DNA of 64,000 bases. Origin: Escherichia coli. Lineage in GTDB: Bacteria; Pseudomonadota; Gammaproteobacteria; Enterobacterales; Enterobacteriaceae. The notes beneath the pieces were generated by a model that was not told the DNA's origin, did no database searches, and worked only from the letters and a program-made list of their open reading frames with translations. The position numbers were made by a program, and so were the translations under genes. This document shows positions 3,426-43,430 of this stretch, piece by piece (positions within the stretch are counted from its first letter, which is position 1; each line of letters opens with the position of its first letter). The DNA lies in assembly GCA_023061495.1 (NCBI GenBank), contig GCA_023061495.1_3643.1; one strand, written 5' to 3'.

Positions 3426-3976
3426 TGGAAGCTTTCGAAAAAGTTTTTTCTGATCTTGAAACAACCATTGCTAAGCTTGTCAAGGTTGCCACAGGAAGAA
3501 CTGTAGTTCTGGCAGAAAGCTCTACCATACCGAAGCCGGAAGGTGAGTTTGTACTTTTACAAACCTTGGCGATCAATCCCACCACTTGGGAAGATAATGA
3601 GTTTCAAGATGCGGAGGGTAATGCTTACGTAACACACAGTTACACTGTTACCTATCTGTTAACAGCTTATCGTGGCAGGGCACATGCTGCACTTGGCAGA
3701 GTATTGCAAGCAATAAACCTTCCAATGTTTTATGACAAGTATTTCCCTCTGGGATCGTGCTTTGCCTACTCTAACAATTCAACAATCTCACCTCAAAGAG
3801 TGCCGTTGAATAAGCAGGCGTATGAAAATAGGGCCACGGTAATGCTGACATTTAACGTAAGGTTTGTTGAGACAGACATTGGGGCTTTTGAGGATCTTCA
3901 GGGAATTAAGGCTGAAATAACCACACACTTCCCTCCACCCAATTCTGATAAATCGGTTACAGACAGTGGTCAGTAA
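3425..3976 (+). CDS. putative neck/tail terminator-type structural protein
   Basis: ATG overlaps upstream stop (TAATG), RBS GAAGGAGAAA; 183 aa; immediately upstream of the sheath candidate. Confidence 0.45.
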   Translation: MEAFEKVFSDLETTIAKLVKVATGRTVVLAESSTIPKPEGEFVLLQTLAINPTTWEDNEFQDAEGNAYVTHSYTVTYLLTAYRGRAHAALGRVLQAINLPMFYDKYFPLGSCFAYSNNSTISPQRVPLNKQAYENRATVMLTFNVRFVETDIGAFEDLQGIKAEITTHFPPPNSDKSVTDSGQ

Positions 3977-4048: not shown

Positions 4049-5425
4049 ATGCCATATTTAGATAAAGTGGTAGATGTTACAGTTAACCTCGGAACCCAAC
4101 CTATTGACACTGTAGGTTTCGAAACTCCGCTGTTCATCGCTATCCACAACAACTTTACTGAGCGAGCTCGTGTATATGCTGAGCTGGATCAGATGGTGGA
4201 AGACGGTTTCGCACAAGGCTCTGCAGCGTATGAGTTTGCAGCAAAAGCTTTCGGCGGTGTATTCCCTCCACAGTATGTTATGATCGGCAGACAAGCCAAA
4301 GAAAAAACCACTGTAGATTTTAAAGGTATTGCTGCCGCAGCTGATACCGATGTCGTAATGACCATTGCAAAAGGTGGCTACAATACTTCTTTGATAGTCC
4401 CTATCTCTGGTGGAACAGGTGCAACTCAGATTGCAGAGGCAATGAAGACTAAAATCGAAGCCGATGATAACTTGGACGATATCACTGTAGAGGCTGCTGA
4501 AGGTGTTATCACCATCACTGGTAACTGCACTGTTGGTTATCATACTGGTAACTATACAATCAAAAATATCGCCAATGCTGAAAAACCTTCTACAGTAGTT
4601 GATAAGATCAATGCTGAGCGGGACAATTGGTACTTCCTGTGCCATGAAGACCACACCGACATTGAAGCATGTGCTAAGTGGGCTCAGGCTAACTACAAGC
4701 TGCATGTCTACTCTACTGCAGAAGATGTGACTGGCAAAGAAAGTAACATCGCCACCAAACTGATGGCTGCACAATATGATAGTGTCGGCATGTACGATCC
4801 TCGTGCGGATAAAGATTTTCCGGAGGGTGGTATCATAGGTGCTATGGCATCCAACGACCCGTCTTACGGTGACAGTTTGCACTTAAAACAGATGCCTGGT
4901 GTGATTGCACCATCTCTGACTTTGACTCAGCGTATGGCGATTTGGGAAAACCACGTTAACTTCTACAGAATGATTAACGGTGTTGGCGCTTTCTGGGAAG
5001 GTAAGTGTGCTTCAGGTCAGTATGCAGACGCTATTCGTTTTGCACACTGGATCAAGTTCAGATCTGAAGAATCCATGTTCGGGTACATGCATCGCCGCTC
5101 CAATATGGGTTTAAGCATGAAGATGTCTGATGATGATCTTCCGGTTATCAAGTCTGTTCTGATGAACAACCCGATCAATACTGGCATTAAGAATGGCGCG
5201 ATCCTGACAGGTTTTGACGAAGACAACAATGTGTTCTACGACCCGATCATCACAGTTCCTAAACGTGCAGAAATCCCAACCAATCAGTTGGCTGCTCGTG
5301 TTCTGGAAGGTGTGAAAGTAGAACTGGTGTATAACAACGCCTTGCACTTCGTTCGTATCCGGATCAACGTCCTCCTGGACAAAGTTGGTTCTAAATCCAC
5401 CAATGCTGTTGCAATGACTGAATAA
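4049..5425 (+). CDS. putative contractile tail sheath protein
   Basis: 458 aa, RBS AAGAGGAAA, high-expression codon usage; followed by a 157-aa tube candidate, frameshifted chaperones and tape measure (classic myovirus order). Confidence 0.5.
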   Translation: MPYLDKVVDVTVNLGTQPIDTVGFETPLFIAIHNNFTERARVYAELDQMVEDGFAQGSAAYEFAAKAFGGVFPPQYVMIGRQAKEKTTVDFKGIAAAADTDVVMTIAKGGYNTSLIVPISGGTGATQIAEAMKTKIEADDNLDDITVEAAEGVITITGNCTVGYHTGNYTIKNIANAEKPSTVVDKINAERDNWYFLCHEDHTDIEACAKWAQANYKLHVYSTAEDVTGKESNIATKLMAAQYDSVGMYDPRADKDFPEGGIIGAMASNDPSYGDSLHLKQMPGVIAPSLTLTQRMAIWENHVNFYRMINGVGAFWEGKCASGQYADAIRFAHWIKFRSEESMFGYMHRRSNMGLSMKMSDDDLPVIKSVLMNNPINTGIKNGAILTGFDEDNNVFYDPIITVPKRAEIPTNQLAARVLEGVKVELVYNNALHFVRIRINVLLDKVGSKSTNAVAMTE

Positions 5426-5435
5426 GGAAGACTAG

Positions 5436-5909
5436 ATGGAAACTCAAATTTTAACTCCTTATGCGTATGACCCTAAAAAGGTCAAACTGTATCTGATGCA
5501 GCAGCGTGTCACTGGCTTCGCTGCTGACACCAAGATCGTTGTTTCAAGAAACGAAGACAACATCTACCCTCACGTTGGTGTGGATGGTGAAATGTCTGCG
5601 GCACTGTCTCGTAACCAATCTGGTGTTATGACTGTATCCTTACAGAACACTTCTGTATGGAACGCTTACCTTTCTGACTGGCAGAAACAGGCATCGATTA
5701 CTGGTCTGGTATTCTTCCCGGTTCTGCTGGAAGGTAGCCAGGGTCCAGGCATTGCTACAATCGGTTGGATCCAGAAACAGCCTGACCTGACTTACGGAAC
5801 CGAAGTAGGTCAACTGGACTGGGATATCGGTATTCTGGATGCATGGCTCAACCGTGACAACATCACTGGTGCTCTCACTGGCCTCGCAGGTCTTGCAGGT
5901 ATTATCTAA
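5436..5909 (+). CDS. putative tail tube protein
   Basis: 157 aa, RBS AAGGAAG, directly after the sheath candidate; terminator downstream. Confidence 0.5.
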   Translation: METQILTPYAYDPKKVKLYLMQQRVTGFAADTKIVVSRNEDNIYPHVGVDGEMSAALSRNQSGVMTVSLQNTSVWNAYLSDWQKQASITGLVFFPVLLEGSQGPGIATIGWIQKQPDLTYGTEVGQLDWDIGILDAWLNRDNITGALTGLAGLAGII

Positions 5910-5927
5910 GAGCACACTCTAGCATAG

Positions 5928-5953
5928 GCCTCACCTTTGGGTGGGGCTTTTTG
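5928..5953 (+). terminator. rho-independent terminator
   Basis: GCCTCACC-TTTG-GGTGGGGC hairpin followed by TTTTT. Confidence 0.6.
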
Positions 5954-5964
5954 CTTTTAGGGTT

Positions 5965-5998
5965 TTGACATATTTGTTTGTTTTTAGTATCCTATAAT
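5965..5998 (+). promoter_or_regulatory. possible promoter for the homing endonuclease gene (perfect hexamers, non-canonical spacing)
   Basis: TTGACA 5965-5970 and TATAAT 5993-5998, but spacer is 22 bp; an alternative TAGTAT at 5985-5990 gives 14 bp. Confidence 0.25.
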
Positions 5999-6014
5999 AA
6001 AGGAGGAGACAGTC

Positions 6015-7640
6015 ATGGCTAAATTGAGTGCAGAAAGGTTTATCGAAAAAGCTCGTAGGGTTCACGGAGATAAGTACGACTATTCTCTTATAGAATACAA
6101 AACATGCAAAGATAAGATAGAAATAGTCTGCAATACCTGTGGTAACCACTTCAACCAGACACCGGATAACCATATAAATCTAAAAAGAGGATGCCCTGTT
6201 TGTGGAGCTGAGAGATCTGCAAAATCAAGAAAGGGTAAGAAATTCCCCCATGAGCGTGGTAACAGGTGCACTACAGAAGAGTGGATCAAGAAGGTACTAA
6301 AAAGATATCCTGAAAATGCTGAAAAGTATGATTATAGTCATGTAGTGTACAAGACCTCTGGAGATAAGGTTGAGATTCATTGCAAAATGTGCGGAAGAAT
6401 AATGCACCAGAAACCTAGCAAGCATTTGTCAGGGCAAGGATGCAAGACTTGCGCAGCAAGATCTGTTTCTGCGAAAAAAGTTCCTAGCTTCCAAGAAATA
6501 GTTGAGAGATGTGTAGAAGTACATGGTAGTGATTATGAGTATTTTGAAGACTCTTATGTGAACACCTCAACACCTATGATGATGCGCCACAAAGAGTGTG
6601 GGAATATCTTCATGCAGCGTCCTGAATTCCATTACGGGAAAGGACAAGGATGCCCTCGTTGCTGTCGAAATCAGTCTAATGGTGAGAAAGAGATCCTGAC
6701 GTTCATTAAAAGTGTGTATAGCGGCGATATTGAAGAGAACGTGCGTATTCTGGGCAACTTTAAGGATCCTTCCAAGAAAAAGATGGAGCTGGACATTTAT
6801 GTTCCGGAGCTTAAGCTTGCTGTGGAATATAATGGTGCCTACTGGCACTCTGTAGACAGTAAGGGGAAATGGTACCACATCCTGAAAAGGAAGGCCTGTG
6901 AAAAACAAGGTATTCGCATGTTGTCTATCTGGGATTGTGATTGGCAGGATGCTCGGAAAAGACCTATCATTGAGAGATATCTCAAGAATGCTTTAGGAGT
7001 CAAAGACGAGAAGACCGTCTATGCCAGAAAGTGCACAGTTAAAGATGTGGACAATAAAACTTACCGTGACTTTATGGAGAAAAACCACATTCAAGGGTAT
7101 GCCCCCGCCAAGGAAGTGAAGAAGGGTCTGTTTACATCTGACGGCGAGCTGGTAGCTTGTATGAGTTTTAAAATACTGAAAAACAGAGATCAAAAGGTAA
7201 CCCCTTTCGTTATGTGGGACATGGTAAGGTATGCAACAAGCTGTAACGTTCCTGGTGGGCGTAGTAAGCTGTTTAAGCATATCCGAGAAGAGTTTAAGAT
7301 GGATCATGTTCAATCCTTCCTTGACAGAGATTACTTCACAGGCGTGTCCTATAAGGAGGAGGATGGCTGGATTTTGGCAGAGGACGATCAGGTGTCTACG
7401 AGCTTCTGGAGCTACCGTGGTGGCAGAATGCCAAGGCAGGCGTGGTGGAAGTCAAACATCCCAGAGACACTGAAGCATCTCGGGTTGGACGAGTCCTTAT
7501 ACGATCCTGAGAAAACACAAGAGTGGAATGCCAAAAATGCAGGCTGCTATATCCTTGAAAACAGTGGCAACTCTCGCTTTGAATGGCACAGTGATGAAGG
7601 TAAAAATGATCCTGCATACTTGGATTGGTTGAAAGGTTAA
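6015..7640 (+). CDS. free-standing homing endonuclease candidate: three zinc-ribbon repeats plus PD-(D/E)xK (DUF559/Vsr-like) nuclease core
   Basis: 541 aa; three ~60-aa repeats each with HGDKYDYS...C-x2-C...GCP-x-C; central motif ELDIYVPELKLAVEYNGAYWHS; AT-rich with AGA/ATA codons unlike flanking genes; inserted between tail tube and chaperone genes. Confidence 0.55.
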   Translation: MAKLSAERFIEKARRVHGDKYDYSLIEYKTCKDKIEIVCNTCGNHFNQTPDNHINLKRGCPVCGAERSAKSRKGKKFPHERGNRCTTEEWIKKVLKRYPENAEKYDYSHVVYKTSGDKVEIHCKMCGRIMHQKPSKHLSGQGCKTCAARSVSAKKVPSFQEIVERCVEVHGSDYEYFEDSYVNTSTPMMMRHKECGNIFMQRPEFHYGKGQGCPRCCRNQSNGEKEILTFIKSVYSGDIEENVRILGNFKDPSKKKMELDIYVPELKLAVEYNGAYWHSVDSKGKWYHILKRKACEKQGIRMLSIWDCDWQDARKRPIIERYLKNALGVKDEKTVYARKCTVKDVDNKTYRDFMEKNHIQGYAPAKEVKKGLFTSDGELVACMSFKILKNRDQKVTPFVMWDMVRYATSCNVPGGRSKLFKHIREEFKMDHVQSFLDRDYFTGVSYKEEDGWILAEDDQVSTSFWSYRGGRMPRQAWWKSNIPETLKHLGLDESLYDPEKTQEWNAKNAGCYILENSGNSRFEWHSDEGKNDPAYLDWLKG

Positions 7641-7641
7641 A

Positions 7642-7670
7642 TTGACAATGCACTATAATCATGGTAAAAT
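7642..7670 (+). promoter_or_regulatory. sigma70-like promoter with extended -10 (TTGACA, 17 bp, TGgTAAAAT)
   Basis: -35 TTGACA 7642-7647, spacer 17, TG 7662-7663, -10 TAAAAT 7665-7670; precedes tail chaperone genes. Confidence 0.6.
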
Positions 7671-7713
7671 ACACAAATATGGTGCACAACATGACTAATA
7701 AGGATGCTATAAA

Positions 7714-8187
7714 ATGGCTATAAACTTTAGACCTACAACAGAGATTGATTTAGCAGGGCACAACTTTGTGATCACCCACTGGGGACCGATGAAAGCAATG
7801 AAAAACATGCCTAAAATCGGTAAGATTGTAGCTGTCCCGCTAGGTGCTATCGGTGGATCTATTCTCTCAGGCGGTCAGAATATGGCAGAGGTCCTTCCTA
7901 CAGCCCTGGCTTACCTGTTCCAAGAACTTGATGATAACTCTATCGAAGAGTTATTTAAAATCTTGTTTGAAGATATTACCGTGGATGGTGTGGATAAGCT
8001 TAACCCTGATGTTGTGTTTGCAGGGCATCTGCTGGAGATGATTAAGCTGGCAGGTAAGGTTCTGGAGGTTAACTACGGCTGTTTTTTCACACAAGACGGT
8101 TTAGGAAGCCTTCTGGAGATGTTACAGCAGATGGGTATGATTCAGCAGGTGAACAATCTGGATCAGACTCCGGAAGAGCAGGAATAA
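7714..8187 (+). CDS. tail assembly chaperone (lambda gpG analogue)
   Basis: 157 aa between tube and tape measure; contains slippery heptamer near its 3' end; downstream overlapping ORF in the -1 frame. Confidence 0.6.
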   Translation: MAINFRPTTEIDLAGHNFVITHWGPMKAMKNMPKIGKIVAVPLGAIGGSILSGGQNMAEVLPTALAYLFQELDDNSIEELFKILFEDITVDGVDKLNPDVVFAGHLLEMIKLAGKVLEVNYGCFFTQDGLGSLLEMLQQMGMIQQVNNLDQTPEEQE

Positions 8188-8447
8188 GCAAGGTTGTTGT
8201 GAGGGCCAGTGAGTGGGCAGCCAAGAACAGTTCACTCAACTGGTTCGACTTTCTTTGGTGCAGGGTGCTTAAGAATTTCAAAGGGGAAAATTTTGAATCG
8301 CTAAATCTTGCAGATATGGCGTATTTCCTGAAGCTCTGTGAGTATCTTGATATCGAAGAATTCCTAGATACCGTCCAAAACAGGGAAATGGAGCGGGAGC
8401 AGAAGGCTGCCGCAGCTGCTGCGAAAGCTAAGCGCAGGAGAGGATAA
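7714..8447 (+). CDS. tail assembly chaperone fusion product (gpGT analogue) via predicted -1 frameshift at 8082-8088
   Basis: Frame-1 ORF 7714-8187 and -1 frame ORF (open 8058-8447) overlap; X_XXY_YYZ heptamer 33 codons before the G-like stop. Confidence 0.45.
8082..8088 (+). other. predicted -1 programmed ribosomal frameshift slippery heptamer T_TTT_TTC
   Basis: Zero-frame codons TGT TTT TTC (8080-8088); the -1 frame is open from 8058 to 8447. Confidence 0.5.
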
Positions 8448-8451
8448 TCTA

Positions 8452-8488
8452 AGGGCCGGATTCCTTTTCTGGGATCTGGCCCTTTTTA
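8452..8488 (+). terminator. possible weak terminator or RNA hairpin
   Basis: Imperfect hairpin GGGCCGGA...TCTGGCCC followed by TTTTT; loop is large. Confidence 0.3.
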
Positions 8489-8501
8489 TTATGAGGAAAG
8501 C

Positions 8502-10841
8502 ATGGCTACAAACAAAATAGTTGCCACAACAGTCAACAAGATTGGCTTTGAGATAGAGAACTCCTCCTACAAAAAAGCTGTAGAGAAAATTCGCAGTATT
8601 GGGAGGGAGTTCAGGAAACTGGGCGAGGATTTTAACTCAGCCAACCCAATGAGTAGATGGCAGGCAGTGGCTGTTAAAACCCAGCAAACAATGCAGCGGG
8701 TTGCCAGACAGCAATCTCAGGCAAATGCTAAACTGCACAGGGAGAGCGTAGCACAAGCCAAGAAAGAGGCTGCAGTAAGGGCTGCAATAGAACGTAGGGA
8801 GAACGCAAGACGTAAACAAGCTGTGGGTAATCTTACCGCTAAAAATCCAGAAATGGCTAGGATGCGTAAGTTCTACCAGCAGCAAGCTAAAGAGGCCAAA
8901 AAGGCTGCCAAATCTGCACCAGTGTCTTACGGCGGTTATAAGGCACCCAAGGCAAGAGTTTTGGCTAATGCCAAATCTTTCAAGTATATCCCTGGTAACC
9001 CTAATATGGGTGGTGTGGCTTCCGACCCTAACCTTGTGAAAGCTCAGACAGCTGCTATGAATCGTTATCATAGACAGCTAAGAAGAGACAGTAAAGCTGG
9101 TATGGATAATAAGCTTATGTCTGATCGTGAGGCAAGGAGAACCCACCTATACAACTCTGCGATAAGACTTTCTGCCAAGTATGGGGCCGGATTCCGTGGA
9201 AGCTTGCCAGGATACTCAGAGTTAGAGTCTAGGTTTGCTCGCGGTGAGATGAAAAAGTCAACCTTTAACGCCCACCTGTCAGCTCTGCAGTCTGGATTTA
9301 AAAGCGCCACCAGCCAAACGCTTACACTGGGTGATGCCATGAGAGACTTACGTAGGTCTGTTATTAATGCAACAGCTGCGTATACAGCTTTCTCTGGATT
9401 TGCTGCGGTTAACAGATCCGGTCACATGATGGAGGGGGCAAGTGCTGCTCTTACTGCTGTTACTGGAGATCCAAACAAAGCCAACAGCGAGGTTGCGTTT
9501 GTCCAGCAAGAGGCTATGCGTCTTGGTTTTGATCTCAAATCTGGTCTTCAAGGTTACGCCCAGATGTCGGTAAACGCCAAAAACCAGATGACAAATCAGG
9601 AAGTGCATGAGCTGTTTTCTGCATACTCACAGTATGCTGCTGCTTACGGTGCCGATGAGGTAAAATACCAGCGTGGTATTATGGCAATCCAGCAAATGCT
9701 CGGTAAAGGGCAAGTAATGTCCGAAGAACTGAAGCAACAACTTGCTGAAGCATTGCCTGGTGCATACGAACCTTTTATCAAGGCCACCAAAGAGGCTTTT
9801 GGTCTTTCTGAACTCTCCATGGATCAGTTCATGGACATGATGAAGAAAGGCGAGGTTAAAACAGCCAAGATCATGAAGTATGTGGCTAAGTACATGAACG
9901 AGGCATCTGCAGCTGGTTATGAAAGAATGCAGAAGTCTAACGTACTGGCAGAAAACAGACTGAAAACCTTCATTGAACTGTCTCGTCAGAAACTATTCAC
10001 CCGTTGGGCTGATGAACTAACAGAGTTCTATTATACACTGATTCGCACTGGTGAGACTTTGCAATTTGTGTGGGATGCCTCTGGTGATTTTGTTAGTGGT
10101 TTTGTGAGAGGTCTCAACTGGGTAGTTGGTGAACTAAACAATACCATAGTCAAGATCCGCATGTTTTTCCTTGAATGGGGGATTAAATGGGGACTCATAA
10201 CAGCTAAGACGAAGGAATATTCTGAAGAGCTTAATGACACCTTTAGCTATGCTAAATGGGCAGGGTTTGCTGCTGCCATTATGCTGGTAGTGAACGCCCT
10301 GACAAAAGGTTTTGTCATGGCATCTATGCTTGTAAAAACCTTCAAATTCCTTAGTTCTATAAGAGGTGCAGCTGGAGCAGCAGGTGCAGGTGCAGCTACC
10401 ACAGAAGGATCTGGTGGTGGTGCGGCAGGAAAAGGGGGAGGTGGCCTCAAGACACCTGGTGGTAAAGTTGGCCTGCTTGGTAAGCTTGGTATTATCGGTA
10501 CAATATTAAGCGCCGTGGAGTTATTTAATGACCGTTTCAACCCACTGAGTGAGAGAAATCAGCAACTGGATACTGTCAGCGATATGATTCGCAAAGATAT
10601 CATATCTGGAGGTAACGGGTTTGTTGATCCTTTGGACACCTTACCGGGAGGGACTCTTCCGTTGCCAGGTGGCCCTGGTTTTGCTTCTCAATTAAGAACT
10701 ATGGAAATGCTCCCTTTAGAGATTAGTGATGGTAAAATCACGATTTCAATAGATGAGGGGGAGTTTAGCAAAATACTTGATGCAAAACTTGAGTGGGAGA
10801 ACAACAAGGATATTAACTTTATGTCAACAGATCTTTGGTAA
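8502..10841 (+). CDS. tail tape measure protein
   Basis: 779 aa directly after frameshifted chaperones; Lys/Ala/Gln-rich predicted coiled coil N-terminal half, Gly-rich tract (GAAGAAGAGAATTEGSGGGAAGKGGGG) and hydrophobic segments. Confidence 0.7.
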   Translation: MATNKIVATTVNKIGFEIENSSYKKAVEKIRSIGREFRKLGEDFNSANPMSRWQAVAVKTQQTMQRVARQQSQANAKLHRESVAQAKKEAAVRAAIERRENARRKQAVGNLTAKNPEMARMRKFYQQQAKEAKKAAKSAPVSYGGYKAPKARVLANAKSFKYIPGNPNMGGVASDPNLVKAQTAAMNRYHRQLRRDSKAGMDNKLMSDREARRTHLYNSAIRLSAKYGAGFRGSLPGYSELESRFARGEMKKSTFNAHLSALQSGFKSATSQTLTLGDAMRDLRRSVINATAAYTAFSGFAAVNRSGHMMEGASAALTAVTGDPNKANSEVAFVQQEAMRLGFDLKSGLQGYAQMSVNAKNQMTNQEVHELFSAYSQYAAAYGADEVKYQRGIMAIQQMLGKGQVMSEELKQQLAEALPGAYEPFIKATKEAFGLSELSMDQFMDMMKKGEVKTAKIMKYVAKYMNEASAAGYERMQKSNVLAENRLKTFIELSRQKLFTRWADELTEFYYTLIRTGETLQFVWDASGDFVSGFVRGLNWVVGELNNTIVKIRMFFLEWGIKWGLITAKTKEYSEELNDTFSYAKWAGFAAAIMLVVNALTKGFVMASMLVKTFKFLSSIRGAAGAAGAGAATTEGSGGGAAGKGGGGLKTPGGKVGLLGKLGIIGTILSAVELFNDRFNPLSERNQQLDTVSDMIRKDIISGGNGFVDPLDTLPGGTLPLPGGPGFASQLRTMEMLPLEISDGKITISIDEGEFSKILDAKLEWENNKDINFMSTDLW

Positions 10842-13912: not shown

Positions 13913-14728
13913 ATGGCTACGCTTTATAGTGATATATTGATGGACCCACAGACAGGCGATTTGGCGATAGACAAAGGTCTTGAGTTGATAGACTCAAACC
14001 AAGTAAGTCTGCGCCAGCGCCTGTGGATGAGGTTTAATACCTGGAAAGGGAGCTGGTACTTTGACGAGTTGTTTGGCTTCCCTTATATGGACTTTCTCAG
14101 TAAGAAGGTCATGAAGACTGTTCTTGATAACAAGATTATGGAAGTGGCAAGACAAGAGCCGGATGTGCTAAACATCATAAACTTCCAATCTACTATGGAT
14201 CGAAGATCGAGAACATATCAAGCGTTCTTTGAGGTTGTTACCAAGGAGAACGAGATTGTAAGACTTGCTTTCGTAGGTCTTGATCAGTTTACCTATCCAC
14301 AGCCTGATGCTGGGACAACCTCTCTCTGTGATGATGAAGGTTGGATTAAGTGGGCTAATAAACTGTACTACCTGATCAACTTTAGATTGCCTAGAACCGG
14401 GGATGCCACATGGTGGAACCAGTATGCCGGTCCTGAGATGGAAAACCCGATCCCTGTAGGCTCTCTGTTGACTCAGGATAAAGATCTGCTGATGACTGAG
14501 GCAGAACAAACCATTAACCGCAATACCTGGACGCTTGCTCCAGATGAGCGCGAATATTCTGGTGTTATTGCTACATCTAATGATGAGGCTATTGCCAACC
14601 AGTCTGACGTNNNNNNNNNNNNNNNNNNNNNNNNNNNNNNNNNNNNNNNNNNNNNNNNNNNNNNNNNNNNNNNNNNNNNNNNNNNNNNNNNNNNNNNNNN
14701 NNNNGGTCGTGCTATTGATGTTAACTAA
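13913..14728 (+). CDS. putative baseplate wedge protein (gp25/gpW-like N-terminal region); internal part masked by N
   Basis: 271 codons including a 94-nt N-run; N-terminal VSLRQRLWMRFNTWKGSWYFDELFGFPY resembles gp25/W-type baseplate proteins; reading frame preserved across the N-run. Confidence 0.4.
   Translation: MATLYSDILMDPQTGDLAIDKGLELIDSNQVSLRQRLWMRFNTWKGSWYFDELFGFPYMDFLSKKVMKTVLDNKIMEVARQEPDVLNIINFQSTMDRRSRTYQAFFEVVTKENEIVRLAFVGLDQFTYPQPDAGTTSLCDDEGWIKWANKLYYLINFRLPRTGDATWWNQYAGPEMENPIPVGSLLTQDKDLLMTEAEQTINRNTWTLAPDEREYSGVIATSNDEAIANQSDXXXXXXXXXXXXXXXXXXXXXXXXXXXXXXXXGRAIDVN
14611..14704. other. run of 94 N (masked or unresolved sequence) inside a CDS
   Basis: Literal N characters; flanking ORF remains in frame. 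Confidence 0.95.
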
Positions 14729-24475: not shown

Positions 24476-25131
24476 TGCCAATTGCAATGATTGATAACAT
24501 CGTTGCTTCTGCAAGATCTTCAAGTTATGACTGGAACGCATCCAAGGCAGCTCTGGCTGACAGCCTGAACACTGTTACCACCAGAACTCTGGATAAGATT
24601 TTCGAGGGCAACAAATCTTACAGAAGTCAGCAAGATAGACAAAAGCTTCTCAGATCTTCTGCTGCACCTTGCTCTGTAGTATATGGAAAGACACGCACAT
24701 CTGGATTGCTTGCGTTTTTGGAGCAGGACAGAGACAGAACCCTTCATTGTGCTATTGTTCTTGCCAATCACCCTCTGGAAGGTATAGAAGATATACTTAT
24801 CGACGGTAATCCTATTTCCTCGTATGGAGATTTGGTATCGTGGGAGCTGCATAACGACAGAAAAACCTCTGATCCTTTCATGGGCACACACTGCCCATCG
24901 TGGTCACCGGACATGATAGGTAGAGGGATCAGTTGGCTACGAGTCAGCTTCAGGTTTGACCCTAACAAGTTTCCTTTTGGGTTGCCAAACGTCACACTCG
25001 TCAAGGTTGGTAAAAAATGCNNNNNNNNNNNNNNNNNNNNNNNNNNNNNNNNNNNNNNNNNNNNNNNNNNNNNNNNNNNNNNNNNNNNNNNNNNNNNNNN
25101 NNNNNNNNNNNNNNNNAAAAAAATGCTATGA
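24475..25131 (+). CDS. tail-tip protein; either a separate gene or the N-terminal part of the J-like protein (unresolved because of N-run)
   Basis: RBS GGAGG then ATG 24475; frame-1 ORF runs into the N-run at 25021-25116 and stops four codons after it; the downstream J-like ORF is in another frame. Confidence 0.35.
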   Translation: MPIAMIDNIVASARSSSYDWNASKAALADSLNTVTTRTLDKIFEGNKSYRSQQDRQKLLRSSAAPCSVVYGKTRTSGLLAFLEQDRDRTLHCAIVLANHPLEGIEDILIDGNPISSYGDLVSWELHNDRKTSDPFMGTHCPSWSPDMIGRGISWLRVSFRFDPNKFPFGLPNVTLVKVGKKCXXXXXXXXXXXXXXXXXXXXXXXXXXXXXXXXKKML

Positions 25132-35159: not shown

Positions 35160-35615
35160 ATGACTAAACCAGTTATCCCTCTTGATATTTGGGCCAATCA
35201 GGATGTTGTGCTTGAAAATACGGGAGAATTGAATAAGTCCCAACCAAAAAAAGAAGAGAGATTGAAAGGTTGGGATATGACACAAAGAGTGGCATGTGAG
35301 GTTGTTAACTTTGAACTTCACATGCTTTCTGCGTGNNNNNNNNNNNNNNNNNNNNNNNNNNNNNNNNNNNNNNNNNNNNNNNNNNNNNNNNNNNNNNNNN
35401 NNNNNNNNNNNNNNNNNNNNNNNNNNNNNNNGGGTGTTGAAGATGTAAGGATAGCAAACCGCTTCAGAACCACCTACAGAGAATCAAGAGTATACCCTGG
35501 GCATGTAATGTGCTCCGGCAATTACGCCTATAAACACCCGTATCAAGGTGACTATTGGACTGGTGCTATTCAAAAATTTGTAAACGGTCAATGGATTACC
35601 ATATCTTATGCTTAA
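35160..35615 (+). CDS. short tail fibre paralogue (middle masked by N)
   Basis: ATG 35160 preceded by CAGGAGA; shares N- and C-terminal motifs (YWTGAIQKFVNGQWITISYA) with the 33104 gene; frame preserved across a 96-nt N-run. Confidence 0.5.
   Translation: MTKPVIPLDIWANQDVVLENTGELNKSQPKKEERLKGWDMTQRVACEVVNFELHMLSAXXXXXXXXXXXXXXXXXXXXXXXXXXXXXXXXXGVEDVRIANRFRTTYRESRVYPGHVMCSGNYAYKHPYQGDYWTGAIQKFVNGQWITISYA
35336..35431. other. run of 96 N (masked or unresolved sequence) inside a CDS
   Basis: Literal N characters; flanking ORF remains in frame. Confidence 0.95.
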
Positions 35616-40600: not shown

Positions 40601-43430
40601 GATAATCCCTGGTCCTGAAACTCTGGGCAATGCCGTTGACCCTTATATCGTCATGACCGTGCTGAGATCAAACATGGATGGGACATCCATGTCTATGCAA
40701 GTTCCAGTAACAAACGGGTACAAACGTGTTGTGATGATCATTAAGTGCGACTTAATAGGTAAGCAAGTTCTTGCAGAAAACGGAACCTCAACACATTTAT
40801 TCGAGACTGCTCTGCATTATCAGTTTGCTGATTCACCTTTTGCAGGGGATAAGAGAATATCTGATACAGACAATGCTCGATGCAAGAAATTTATGCTTGG
40901 TGGTGGATGGTGGTGGTATGAATTTGATTTAACAGACAAATTCACCGACACGTCTAAAGTGGTGACAGGGCTTCGTCTAGATCTTGGCGAAAACATGCAC
41001 AAAAGTGTTTGTGATGGCACCTACGGTGACCCAACAATCTACTTAAAGTATGTTTCTTTTGAGCACCCAGAGGATGTCGTTTATGGTCCAAAACTGAGAC
41101 TGTTTGGCAATTGGATTGCTAAAGACAGGGCAGGTATGGGTAAAAAGGTGAGAGGGTTCTTAGTTGATGCAGGAACAGAAGACATGTTGGTTAATGCAGT
41201 GTGGCCTGAATTACCGGGAACTCAGTGGGACAATTCTGCTAAGTCTATAAACTGGTTCAATATCCACAGAGCTATGTGGGCAACTAACTGCTATCTGTGG
41301 AAAGAGTTGAATGACGGCGCTTTCGGGTTTACTGGTGGCAGAAGAATGGCAATCATTTGCTGGACAACGCTGCAGAGATGTTATGACCATGACTACGAGA
41401 TTGGAGGCAGGGCATGGAAAAATATAAGGGATAGAATCATAACTAACTTTGCAGATCCTAACGGTGGCGGGGCGTATGGTTTCGACTGCAGCAGGCTTAT
41501 CCATTTGAACGGATCTTCGGCCTATAAGAAAGAAGGCTACTCTGGGGCCATGATTGAATGGGGCTTGGTAAAAGATTCTCGTGTGTTGATGGGTCAGCAA
41601 CTTGCTGCTGCAATAGGACCGAACGCAGTACAATCTGTTAAACCAGCATGGTTCGATATCCCATTATGGTCCTCTGGAACACCAGGAACTGCTGCAATCA
41701 ACCCTACCACTGGGGATCTGGAAATCTCCTGGGAGGACCTGAAGCAGGTCGGTGGCTGGGATAAGGCAGGGTACCAGGTGCAATGGTGGAGATCTGACGG
41801 ATCATTGGCGGCTGATGAGTTTGTTAAGGACAATTTCTACACCATGTCCTCTGCAAAAGCACAGCAATTGTTTGGTCAGGCCACTCCGTCAACGATCACC
41901 ATGTCCATGTGCTGTAAAGACACCAGGACTGGAGCTCTGGGGCCAAGGGTTGCTAAAGTTTTCTCAGGTATTAAATGGAATCTCCCTGTTCAAAGTGTTT
42001 CATGGAAGCAAATAGGTGATAACAAGCTGCTGGTTACCCCAGCTTGTCAGTTCAGCGCAACTCTTAACGTTGATCCTGCTGTTGCGGCAAACTCAGCTAA
42101 AGCTTCTGACTTCTCTGTGTCTAACACTGCTATGGCAGATGTGAGGAAGATTGACACGCTGAACGCCAGAATTACCTGTAAAAACACTTATGGCACATTC
42201 CAGATCATCAACAACTTCACAGATGCTGATTCTAAGGTAGTGAGGACAGCAAGCCAAACTCTGAGTTTAGGAACTCTGGCCTACGCGGCCCTGATCACTG
42301 AACAGTCGGCAACACTCCAAGGAGGCGGTGTAGGCAAGTCCATTGCAACACCTGTGTGGAAGCCAAATGAGTGGGTTGTGTTTGATTTAACTGTGGACTT
42401 CTCCAGCGATAATAACTGGACATGGGTAAGGAATTNNNNNNNNNNNNNNNNNNNNNNNNNNNNNNNNNNNNNNNNNNNNNNNNNNNNNNNNNNNNNNNNN
42501 NNNNNNNNNNNNNNNNNNNNNNNNNNNNNNNNNTTCTTGTCACAACTGATGGGTGGCCCAAACTCAGTTAGTGATAGCCAAGACTCCACTGACCCGAGTG
42601 TGTTTCAGGTGGGTAAAACTCACCCAGAAACTGGGGCACCGTTGCCTGACAGGAAGTATGCTTTGGTTTGCATCTCTTACGGAAAAGCAGATGTAACCTT
42701 CTCAGGGACACACACATATAACGGCACTTACAACTTCTCTAAAAAGTACAGCCTCAAGGCAGGTAACATTGTAGACGAGGTTGGTGCGTTGTATAATCCA
42801 GGAAACGGGATAGGGATTGTAGGTGGTAAACTGCAGATGCAGGAACCTTCTATTACCCCTTCCAATGTGCCAGGAATCAGAAAGACTTGGGAAAGTAGTA
42901 ATACCAACATTGCAACAGTGGATGCTACCACAGGGCTGGTAACATTTAAAGCTACTGGGAATGTCACTATAAAGTTTGTAGTTACAGATGATGCAGGGCG
43001 CAAAACGTCTTCAACATCTTTTACTGTCAAACAGATGGCACCACAGTGGAGAATGTGGATAGGTACAGCAACAAACGGGGCATATCCTAATCCGGCAGGG
43101 ACTTCTGGTATGAAGACTTTCTCTACAAGCAAGCCGATGGAGTACGGCAGCGGTCCTAAGGTAGGGCAGATGGTGTACTTTGGTGCGTATATTCCTGAAA
43201 TTATAGGGCTTCCGAGAAGTCAGCTTCAGTTGCTGTTTGGGGCTGGTGTTGACGATCTTGCCACTTTCGGGTATAGAGACAACATCGATGCTGCAAGGAG
43301 TTCAGGATGGGTAGGGTTCAGAATGGAGTCTGGAAAGGAAGGCAGGATTCTAGGGACAGCCTCTATAGGTGTTATGTTCCCTGGTGACCAGCAGTATCGT
43401 CTAGAAGCCTACGCAACCTTTTCTCGTTAA
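37695..43430 (+). CDS. giant virion-associated protein (1911 aa) with bacterial Ig-like (Big_2-type) domain; part masked by N
   Basis: Single ORF preserved in frame across a 98-nt N-run; segment PSNVPGIRKTWESSNTNIATVDATTGLVTFKATGNVTIKFVVTDDAGRKTSSTSFTVK resembles Big_2 domains; ends at a bidirectional terminator. Confidence 0.55.
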   Translation: MLPIPLLKLGRHFLDKRGGIKELAVLSYPIDNSDGTSTTVPYVNSLAILFDDGQLNITGYNRFGECRTGDLDTINYPNEAAWNVDHVWRADRAFVIRTFDNQFFYIGCTAGLIGSDAAGGNDVCVREWTPLPEQIVKGLHLDTHPERLIEVMGGINNTVWVIAEAEGTGILNLYGSGNNTYGSLHVDKNQHATPVKIGETSENPETGPWKNPSINCEVHDNSVIFGGPRGFWIAGYDFLRNNSRNDLVWPPVQITRNDLRGIPADEEWKGFMCGPNGAIIATQRMHKPNDQQLVNVFYGQDVWGDDTWRSLNITYTHEVIMARGYGTSGIFFNNGTKQYRGFSRNLCNDIGAQSANNSPRANFIHYQALATAKYVEQRLPVSWTESVYFQGIHREGFLGTFTVVNGKLWWSGIPRGSFAGSNNLFGGRLNSQGFTEVPENWYKNVPVDSWGVDDIFDVNGVSSVSNIYIGDTVKMKLKPQPEGATFIIDKIELVNAAGTVVTDANYQFSANWNHGGANEVVVTQYNRNVNRRGLYSVKITYHDKHGTGRTHTTRTLNWNTIVPAYPSDGKWHTVGRNKQFHVNDTVYFGLNAAQPAVEGDTSYMVRLHRMDAGSVTYDVTQEIYNQRRNTYDNLVQTQALWEFNPNGRGGKMLQVNEQNGTSLTVHEHPNPWPDPGKPNSGARTLKIVSHDVGYFGIRWEATVRYADGTTNNIGITLGGTSEDNSLKIAYTPRGISIDNMDVVRNGYGDVNIKVTLGEHLGGERIIMYAFDHDPRTNGTYADQAWSYLISAPEPNTKEFYYGMKRNVCKKTGTHDWIAICVKDERTAWNEPVNRWFVGIPTRSDKYVEEYIVCMGGTNLNMCWNEDANNKYSDYDYMRDYSCNQWFNQPGYADRQARVNPAIFTDTQVFLTKQANEVQTFKNKYDPNKWFYNCYGAFFWGPGELPNGGSCFEAATYASDRFMGQVKKYKIIPGPETLGNAVDPYIVMTVLRSNMDGTSMSMQVPVTNGYKRVVMIIKCDLIGKQVLAENGTSTHLFETALHYQFADSPFAGDKRISDTDNARCKKFMLGGGWWWYEFDLTDKFTDTSKVVTGLRLDLGENMHKSVCDGTYGDPTIYLKYVSFEHPEDVVYGPKLRLFGNWIAKDRAGMGKKVRGFLVDAGTEDMLVNAVWPELPGTQWDNSAKSINWFNIHRAMWATNCYLWKELNDGAFGFTGGRRMAIICWTTLQRCYDHDYEIGGRAWKNIRDRIITNFADPNGGGAYGFDCSRLIHLNGSSAYKKEGYSGAMIEWGLVKDSRVLMGQQLAAAIGPNAVQSVKPAWFDIPLWSSGTPGTAAINPTTGDLEISWEDLKQVGGWDKAGYQVQWWRSDGSLAADEFVKDNFYTMSSAKAQQLFGQATPSTITMSMCCKDTRTGALGPRVAKVFSGIKWNLPVQSVSWKQIGDNKLLVTPACQFSATLNVDPAVAANSAKASDFSVSNTAMADVRKIDTLNARITCKNTYGTFQIINNFTDADSKVVRTASQTLSLGTLAYAALITEQSATLQGGGVGKSIATPVWKPNEWVVFDLTVDFSSDNNWTWVRNXXXXXXXXXXXXXXXXXXXXXXXXXXXXXXXXXFLSQLMGGPNSVSDSQDSTDPSVFQVGKTHPETGAPLPDRKYALVCISYGKADVTFSGTHTYNGTYNFSKKYSLKAGNIVDEVGALYNPGNGIGIVGGKLQMQEPSITPSNVPGIRKTWESSNTNIATVDATTGLVTFKATGNVTIKFVVTDDAGRKTSSTSFTVKQMAPQWRMWIGTATNGAYPNPAGTSGMKTFSTSKPMEYGSGPKVGQMVYFGAYIPEIIGLPRSQLQLLFGAGVDDLATFGYRDNIDAARSSGWVGFRMESGKEGRILGTASIGVMFPGDQQYRLEAYATFSR
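42436..42533. other. run of 98 N (masked or unresolved sequence) inside a CDS
   Basis: Literal N characters; flanking ORF remains in frame. Confidence 0.95.

Follow-up and report, generated by a model that had tools for sequence, protein, structure and literature searches.

A probable Hef-like homing endonuclease gene with a Mom-like C-terminal domain in the tail module of an rV5-like Escherichia coli phage

Background

Hef-type proteins of bacteriophages have been placed in the 'EDxHD' family of homing endonucleases, which is typified by I-Bth0305I (Taylor et al. 2011, PMC3239194). According to the title of Sandegren 2005, as given in the papers that cite it, the hef gene of the T-even phage U5 replaces mobE, and U5 Hef has been reported to cleave nrdB (reviewed in PMC2988022). 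Repeated zinc fingers of the CapR/DUF723/DUF4379 type form the DNA-binding part of phage homing endonucleases, and the number of repeats shifts by recombination (Barth et al. 2023, PMC10448857). Jumbo phages have been described to encode fusions of a Mom domain with a nuclease of the REase fold, PA5oct alone having five, and a restriction-modification-like role has been proposed for these proteins (Iyer et al. 2021, PMC7824862). The present study concerns a putative homing endonuclease gene, an open reading frame (ORF) at positions 6015-7640 (+ strand) of a 64,000-nucleotide stretch of DNA deposited as Escherichia coli (assembly GCA_023061495.1, contig GCA_023061495.1_3643.1). The whole stretch is hereafter called the window. 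Its source is a Vequintavirus, i.e. an rV5/FV3-like E. coli myophage with a non-jumbo genome of 138 kb.

The Mom protein of phage Mu is also relevant to this gene. Mom is a GNAT enzyme that was recently found to move glycine from Gly-tRNA onto the N6 of adenine in double-stranded DNA, and it dimerises. Mutation of its residues H58, R111, S124, D149 or Y159 abolishes or strongly cuts the activity; of these residues, R111 is Mom-specific within the GNATs.

An initial annotation, made from the letters of the window alone, had read the ORF as a homing endonuclease gene inserted in the tail module. Our analysis agrees with it: the gene is free-standing, it encodes three zinc modules followed by a nuclease of the PD-(D/E)xK superfamily, and it is optional at its site. 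We consider it likely that it represents a Hef-like (Vsr-fold, 'EDxHD'-type) homing endonuclease gene, located in the spacer that separates the terminator of the tail-tube gene from the promoter of the chaperone gene. We further describe a C-terminal domain that had been overlooked and that appears to be homologous to Mom.

Methods

Phage records were surveyed with a 4.45-kb query around the gene, and the empty allele was used as a query in turn. In the homology comparisons the gene located between nrdA and nrdB of phage N2 served as a stand-in for U5 Hef. Scans with a single sequence were weak, NCBIfam giving nothing meaningful and phmmer against the PDB reaching 3r3p only with an E-value of 0.42, so that family profiles were needed.

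Results

The ORF starts with ATG and encodes a protein of 541 residues, which matches PHROG 559 over residues 2-528 (E 1.3e-110) and PHROG 3339, labelled 'homing endonuclease' (E 1.6e-66). In total 1205 homologues were found. By tblastn 1112 phage records match the protein, under labels such as 'Hef-like homing endonuclease', 'F-LimX homing endonuclease' or 'nuclease/acetyltransferase', and some phages contain many copies of the family gene per genome. The nuclease domain (residues 221-328, positions 6675-6998, + strand) has a Vsr fold, of the PD-(D/E)xK superfamily, and is homologous to I-Bth0305I. Its conserved residues are E224, D260, E271, N273, H278, H288 and K291. D260, E271, H278, H288 and K291 are invariant in the family, and the alignment places them relative to D196 and H213 of I-Bth0305I. 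When the EDxHD motif of that enzyme (E170, D196, N208, H213, D222) is taken as reference, D260, N273 and H278 fall exactly in line with it; E224, also conserved, stands upstream where it would be expected, but the stretch around it lies outside the alignment. The PD-(D/E)xK-like core suspected in the initial annotation is therefore present as a Vsr-type core after the repeats, and its catalytic residues are in place.

The T4-type homologue of phage N2 encodes 530 residues (tblastn E 3e-22), and its position between nrdA and nrdB is consistent with what has been reported for U5 hef. The N2 Hef-like protein, F-LimX, the homologue of Wroclawvirus sp. 30-2 and the window protein share 42 invariant columns over the nuclease and the Mom-like core. 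Judged from these alignments, the gene belongs to a known family and falls, within the Vsr-fold 'EDxHD' homing endonucleases, on the Hef-like branch. The initial annotation had not recognised its architecture as that of a standard homing endonuclease family; the PHROG 559 match places it in a known one, and zinc arrays of this kind had already been described.

The N-terminal part is made of three tandem modules of about 70 residues, corresponding to the zinc-ribbon repeats noted earlier. Module 1 (residues 1-72, positions 6015-6230, + strand) was recognized as an internal repeat and has the ligands C39, C42, C60 and C63; module 2 (residues 84-155, positions 6264-6479, + strand) has C123, C126, C143 and C146; module 3 (residues 156-220, positions 6480-6674, + strand) has H192, C195, C213 and C216, the last two being invariant in the family. 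All three are of the CxxC...CxxC type and significantly similar in pairwise BLASTP (E 1e-16, 6e-12 and 4e-8), with the ligand pairs in register. The protein's own Pfam zinc matches, to DUF4379 (a treble-clef zinc finger) over residues 101-148 of module 2 (E 0.0027) and, weakly, to DUF723 in module 1 (E 0.054), are below threshold. Among 58 relatives, the family profiles were matched by 55 for DUF4379, 50 for DUF723 and 18 for CapR. By analogy with their family, the modules probably bind DNA.

The site of the gene is polymorphic. The 4.45-kb query is matched by 136 phage records, mostly with 95-99% identity; five cover at least 80% of it, and the remaining matches listed cover only 63%, being devoid of approximately 1642 nucleotides. 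With the empty allele as query, at least 112 records were found to contain a contiguous empty spacer of 162 nucleotides. The insertion between the tube and tail chaperone genes is thus confirmed, with five occupied against at least 112 empty sites at the same junctions, and the great majority of related phages are insertion-free, so that this is not a conserved core gene. Among the carriers, HMD-6 and JEP1 have the same 541-residue gene as the window, and PDX, A147 and A135 have a longer allele in the same spacer, with four zinc modules in PDX/A147 vs three in the window. The HMD-6 and JEP1 copies are labelled 'hypothetical protein' in GenBank. We also observed that 18 'Campylobacter phage' records (MG065644, MG065690, MG065654 and others) are Vequintavirus genomes approximately 97% identical to E. 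coli phages; the A147 record, the sole one of the 18 that was opened, is marked UNVERIFIED, and the assignment to a Campylobacter host looks doubtful.

Junction alignment with FV3, WalterGehring and Murica delimited a segment of approximately 1642 nucleotides net, at positions 5971-7618 (+ strand), that has no counterpart in the empty allele, its ends being good to a few bases. On the left it begins immediately 3' of the TTGACA at 5965-5970. On the right the boundary falls within the ORF: the last seven codons and the stop, CTTGGATTGGTTGAAAGGTTAA (7619-7640, + strand), also occur in the empty allele, with 20 of the 22 nucleotides identical. The empty spacer reads ...GGTTTTGACA CACGTTCTTGAATTGC TTGAAAGGTTAA ATTGACAATGCAC..., and the codons homologous to the 3' end of the ORF (YLDW / YLEW) are normal coding sequence in diverged alleles (YLEW in the two alleles here called L008, from a related metagenomic phage, and L009). 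In Mydovirus and Seunavirus, two more distant Vequintavirinae, the tube/chaperone spacer is only about 80 nucleotides long and contains neither the TTGACA box nor the ORF remnant. With its orphan TTGACA and ORF 3' end, the common 'empty' allele can be read as the probable scar left by a deletion of this cassette, which fits the invasion-loss-reinvasion cycle of homing genes.

The empty allele of FV3 (locus L002, 2350-2524) also contains four TTGA motifs spaced by 13, 9 and 13 nucleotides, two of which belong to TTGACA -35 boxes (5965-5970 and 7642-7647 in the window). In carrier alleles one TTGA motif is altered (TTGG) or absent and the first motif is displaced by 1.6 kb. These motifs may be candidate binding sites of the zinc modules, or they may be due to chance.

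Sequence divergence around the site supports mobility of the gene. It is 99.0-99.5% identical to its HMD-6 and JEP1 counterparts vs 96.3-96.7% for the adjacent sheath and tube genes; compared with HMD-6, eight differences were counted in the 1626-nucleotide gene and 12 in the 474-nucleotide tube gene. Single-nucleotide polymorphisms at 5911, 5960 and 7654 occur only with the three-module allele. In the flanks, the distance of FV3, which has an empty site, from the window is no larger than that of the carriers (97.2% identity over sheath and tube, 99.7% over the chaperone region). The four-module allele of PDX/A147 lies at the same junctions in backbones that are 93-98% identical, and has a nucleotide identity of 77-79%, with synonymous sites near saturation (pS 0.57-0.82). 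At the same tube-chaperone site, metagenomic phages with a tube protein 87% identical contain homologues of 62-66% identity. Paralogues with approximately 50% identity occupy other sites, one beside a fragmented nrdD and another in a 53-kb Salmonella phage.

Some further observations were made at these sites. The backbone around the gene is mosaic, with positions 7714-8500 being 99.7% and positions 4049-5909 being 97.2% identical to FV3. In the locus L016 (89-7854) a paralogue (51% identity) follows an nrdD broken into at least five ORFs, and a gene for a DUF723+MUG113 (T5orf172-type) endonuclease lies just before nrdG, the whole forming a dense cluster of mobile genes.

Purifying selection acts on the protein, unevenly along its length: the ratio of non-synonymous to synonymous change (dN/dS) is approximately 0.03 in the Mom-like domain and 0.055 in the nuclease, and zinc modules 1 and 2 show six to eight times more non-synonymous change. 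Such ratios are not those of a gene in decay, and constraint is strongest in the Mom-like domain.

This domain comprises the C-terminal 213 residues (329-541, positions 6999-7637, + strand), has a GNAT fold and contains the conserved residues R338, F353, H358, R405, G414, S417, D437 and Y446. Alignment of the domain family with a 27-member Mom alignment by hhalign gave a probability of 93.8% (E 1.8e-7), and only 22.6% when Mu Mom was used as a single sequence. The Pfam Mom model (PF25680) was matched by six of the 58 relatives (best E 3.6e-8) and ordinary GNAT models by five; a Pfam scan restricted to the domain gave no Mom or GNAT match for the window, N2, Wroclawvirus sp. 30-2 or F-LimX. Five of the six essential Mom residues are identical, H358, R405, S417, D437 and Y446 corresponding to Mom H58, R111, S124, D149 and Y159, and the motif VQSF.D is the same in Mom and in the domain. 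These alignments suggest that the C-terminal domain and phage Mu Mom are probably homologous. The enzyme presumably depends on this domain, which would then not be a decaying appendage.

Upstream of the ORF we found a ribosome-binding site by direct reading, AAGGAGGAG at 6000-6008 (+ strand), 6 nucleotides ahead of the ATG, and a sigma-70-like promoter, TTGACA-N17-TATCCT, at 5965-5993 (+ strand). The promoter-like element seen in the initial annotation can thus be retained; its -10 hexamer lies within the gene-specific segment, and its -35 hexamer (5965-5970) is also present in the empty allele. Promoters of the same form (TTGACA-N17-TATCAT / TATAGT / TATACT) precede the gene in three diverged alleles (PDX/A147, L008 and L009). 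The flanking terminator likewise exists, on the upstream side, but it belongs to the tail-tube gene and not to the insertion: this intrinsic terminator (5926-5959, + strand; stem-loop 5926-5949 followed by a T run) is host sequence outside the mobile gene, is kept in all empty-site relatives and is annotated as a terminator in phage Murica. In the window its loop carries a private change at position 5938 (TTCG to TTTG), found in none of the seven relatives compared. Downstream, a chaperone/tape-measure promoter, TTGACA-N17-TAAAAT with a TG extension (7642-7670, + strand), is common to all alleles, including the empty one. This strong promoter and the terminator are thus the host phage's and not the mobile gene's. 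In the L008 and L009 alleles the chaperone promoter TTGACA-N17-TAAAAT is located within the last codons of the endonuclease ORF (5590-5725 in L009, and the equivalent in L008), and because of this position the cassette may have carried in the downstream promoter.

The composition of the gene is typical of the phage. Its GC content is 43.1% vs 44.6% for the window, which corresponds to the 15th percentile of windows of the same size, and the third of the gene encoding the zinc modules (40.7%) is the sole part that is lower. Its leave-one-out codon adaptation of 0.77 ranks 18 of 27 genes, and AGA/AGG account for 19 of its 33 Arg codons vs 277 of 550 in the reference phage genes, i.e. they are used as in the rest of the phage. 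The descriptions 'AT-rich' and 'rare codons' in the initial annotation are not borne out by these values, and a foreign origin deduced from GC content and codon adaptation was rejected. An intron-encoded endonuclease of group I or II was also ruled out, as the gene lies in an intergenic terminator-promoter spacer and an Rfam scan of 5400-8300 (E up to 1) found no intron, nor any other family around the gene.

In the tail module around the gene, the genes for the sheath (4049-5425) and the tube (5436-5909) are located upstream; downstream come those for the tail assembly chaperone (7714-8187) and, after a small ORF, for the tape measure (8502-10841). In the L008 phage an HNH_3 endonuclease gene interrupts the tape-measure gene (6695-9866), and the tube and Hef-like genes are separated by an additional ORF of 108 residues that has a terminator of its own (3579-3905). 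A tblastn search with the protein found no paralogue elsewhere in the window, and no tRNA genes were found in the window. The window also holds four runs of N of 94-98 bases each (14611-14704, 25021-25116, 35336-35431 and 42436-42533), the first of which breaks the ORF 13913-14728.

Discussion

If the gene is a homing endonuclease gene, as we believe, it would be transcribed from its own sigma-70-like promoter, and its product would read a long DNA site via the three tandem CapR/DUF723-type zinc modules, as suggested by the family. By analogy with Hef and I-Bth0305I, the Vsr-type domain, with D260, E271, H278 and H288, would then cut the genome of a co-infecting phage lacking the gene, near the spacer. 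Recombinational repair from the carrier would copy the gene and a short flank into the recipient, a step to which the population patterns point indirectly.

Several points weigh against this interpretation. The EDxHD motif ends in His (H288) and not in Asp; H288 is invariant among the aligned Hef-like proteins, and the T4-type Hef-like protein also has His at this position. Scanned alone, the window protein has no domain that reaches the Pfam threshold. A cleavage site could not be derived from the sequence, the TTGA motifs being only a lead. That the gene is more similar between phages than its flanks are could be due to ordinary recombination without endonuclease drive, and the presence of the gene in only about 4% of the relatives may equally reflect an ancestral gene under loss. 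As for the C-terminal domain, the essential R151 of Mom aligns with D439 in this clade, next to R438, and most other family members have Arg at this position, many of them reading SFADRRW. In the fold search Mom ranked eighth and did not stand out from other GNATs, though it gave the longest alignment.

Other activities of the protein have to be considered. That it might be an HNH endonuclease is said by the label of PHROG 559, and by this label alone. The protein itself has no HNH match, and none appears in the 25 commonest of the 32 Pfam families matched by the 58 relatives, and the nuclease domain folds as Vsr/I-Bth0305I; the fold and the profiles refute the HNH assignment, to which we give practically no credence. 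The widely used label of this large family is therefore wrong, the nuclease being Vsr-type and the C-terminus Mom-like. The protein could also act as a single-chain weapon similar to a restriction-modification system, the Mom-like domain modifying the phage's own adenines and the nuclease attacking unmodified DNA of the host or of a competitor, a role which would be compatible with homing. Such a role was proposed for the Mom-REase fusions, of which PA5oct has five (PMC7824862), and tblastn found five places matching the window protein in a Wroclawvirus jumbo phage (sp. 30-2); the Mom-like domain, moreover, keeps five of the six essential residues and is the most constrained domain. We nevertheless consider this role unlikely. 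General genome protection by modification does not agree with the absence of the gene from approximately 96% of near-identical phages, a modification made in a shared cytoplasm cannot tell self from a co-infecting genome, Mom R151 is not conserved in this clade, and the gene is distributed as homing genes are, at fixed intergenic sites, at nrd hot spots and in many copies per genome. An even smaller probability, close to nil, is assigned to a domesticated DNA-binding regulator that no longer cuts, like CapR of PLE. CapR itself was derived from the zinc-finger domains of homing endonucleases (PMC10448857), and its profile is matched by 18 of the 58 relatives, but the catalytic residues of the present family are invariant and under purifying selection, and the full three-part architecture is retained.

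The gene might, alternatively, be an ancestral component of the tail module that is being lost by deletion without being actively mobile. All the empty alleles examined indeed have a single junction that keeps the ORF 3' end and the orphan -35 box, and a phage clade further away has homologues at this site too. Against this, the adjacent tube gene has diverged five times as much among carriers as the gene itself, two alleles of saturated synonymous divergence are found on backbones that are 93-98% identical, the backbones of the carriers are no closer to the window than that of the empty-site FV3, and the gene shows no relation to tail function. We therefore regard loss of an immobile ancestral gene as improbable, and homing as the preferred explanation.

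A homing endonuclease in an rV5-like phage is in itself ordinary, given the size of the family (1205 homologues, 1112 phage records). The locus is of interest as a clean example of the homing cycle, since a single site shows two alleles that have diverged deeply as well as a probable deletion scar. The under-appreciated feature is the Mom-like domain, whose role in homing is testable in small culturable E. coli phages with natural carrier and empty-site strains. Our literature searches found nothing on 'Hef-like' together with acetyltransferase, and nothing relevant on Mom together with homing endonuclease and GNAT. Our best guess is that this domain acts on DNA at or near the target, where it would bind a flipped base, possibly acylate it and perhaps dimerise the protein. 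A bolder and rather doubtful possibility is that Hef-like homing endonucleases are two-enzyme machines, in which the zinc array would bring to one site both the Vsr nuclease and a Mom-type domain active in adenine modification, so that modification on the spot would set which DNA is cut. The modification may be aminoacyl-tRNA-dependent or acyl-CoA-dependent, and may confer, for example, immunity on the carrier allele or on converted molecules. If this were true, no earlier homing element would have had a chemical self-immunity of its own, and Mom chemistry would have a second natural use, in this case a site-directed one.

Among described systems, Hef and the Hef-like proteins (the phage N2 gene and F-LimIII/VII/VIII/X of Dickeya phage LIMEstone1) are closest, having in common with the window protein a Vsr-type nuclease and a GNAT/Mom-like C-terminal core. 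The 42 invariant columns include D260, E271, H278, H288, K291, R338, H358, R405, G414, S417 and Y446. As here, Hef-like genes are free-standing, intergenic and located beside conserved genes, one LIMEstone copy even adjoining the tail tube gene. They differ in the N-terminal DNA-binding region, made of three regular CapR/DUF723-type modules here and less regular in N2 and F-LimX, and in the genomic site and host phage lineage, and the overall identity is only 27-28%. I-Bth0305I (PDB 3r3p; Taylor et al. 2011, PMC3239194) is an intron-encoded protein of 266 residues with NUMOD/HTH DNA binding and a C-terminal nuclease but no GNAT domain, and the Asp that ends its motif is His (H288) in the window protein. 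The T5orf172 (GIY-YIG-type) homing endonucleases (PMC10448857) have similar CapR/DUF723/DUF4379 arrays of variable repeat number, as in the three vs four modules found here and in PDX/A147, whereas their catalytic domain is T5orf172 instead of Vsr-type plus Mom-like. Phage Mu Mom (PF25680; PDB 8bv8) is a stand-alone enzyme, whereas here the Mom-like domain is part of a nuclease and D439 aligns with R151. Finally, the Mom-REase fusions of jumbo phages were read as restriction-modification-like (PMC7824862), whereas the present gene lies at a polymorphic site in a phage of 138 kb. The five Wroclawvirus matches and the shared nuclease/Mom-like core indicate that the Hef-like homing endonucleases and these fusions are probably the same family. 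Wroclawvirus is presumably the genus of PA5oct. The two published views, Hef-like homing and a restriction-modification-like role of Mom-REase fusions, thus probably concern one family.

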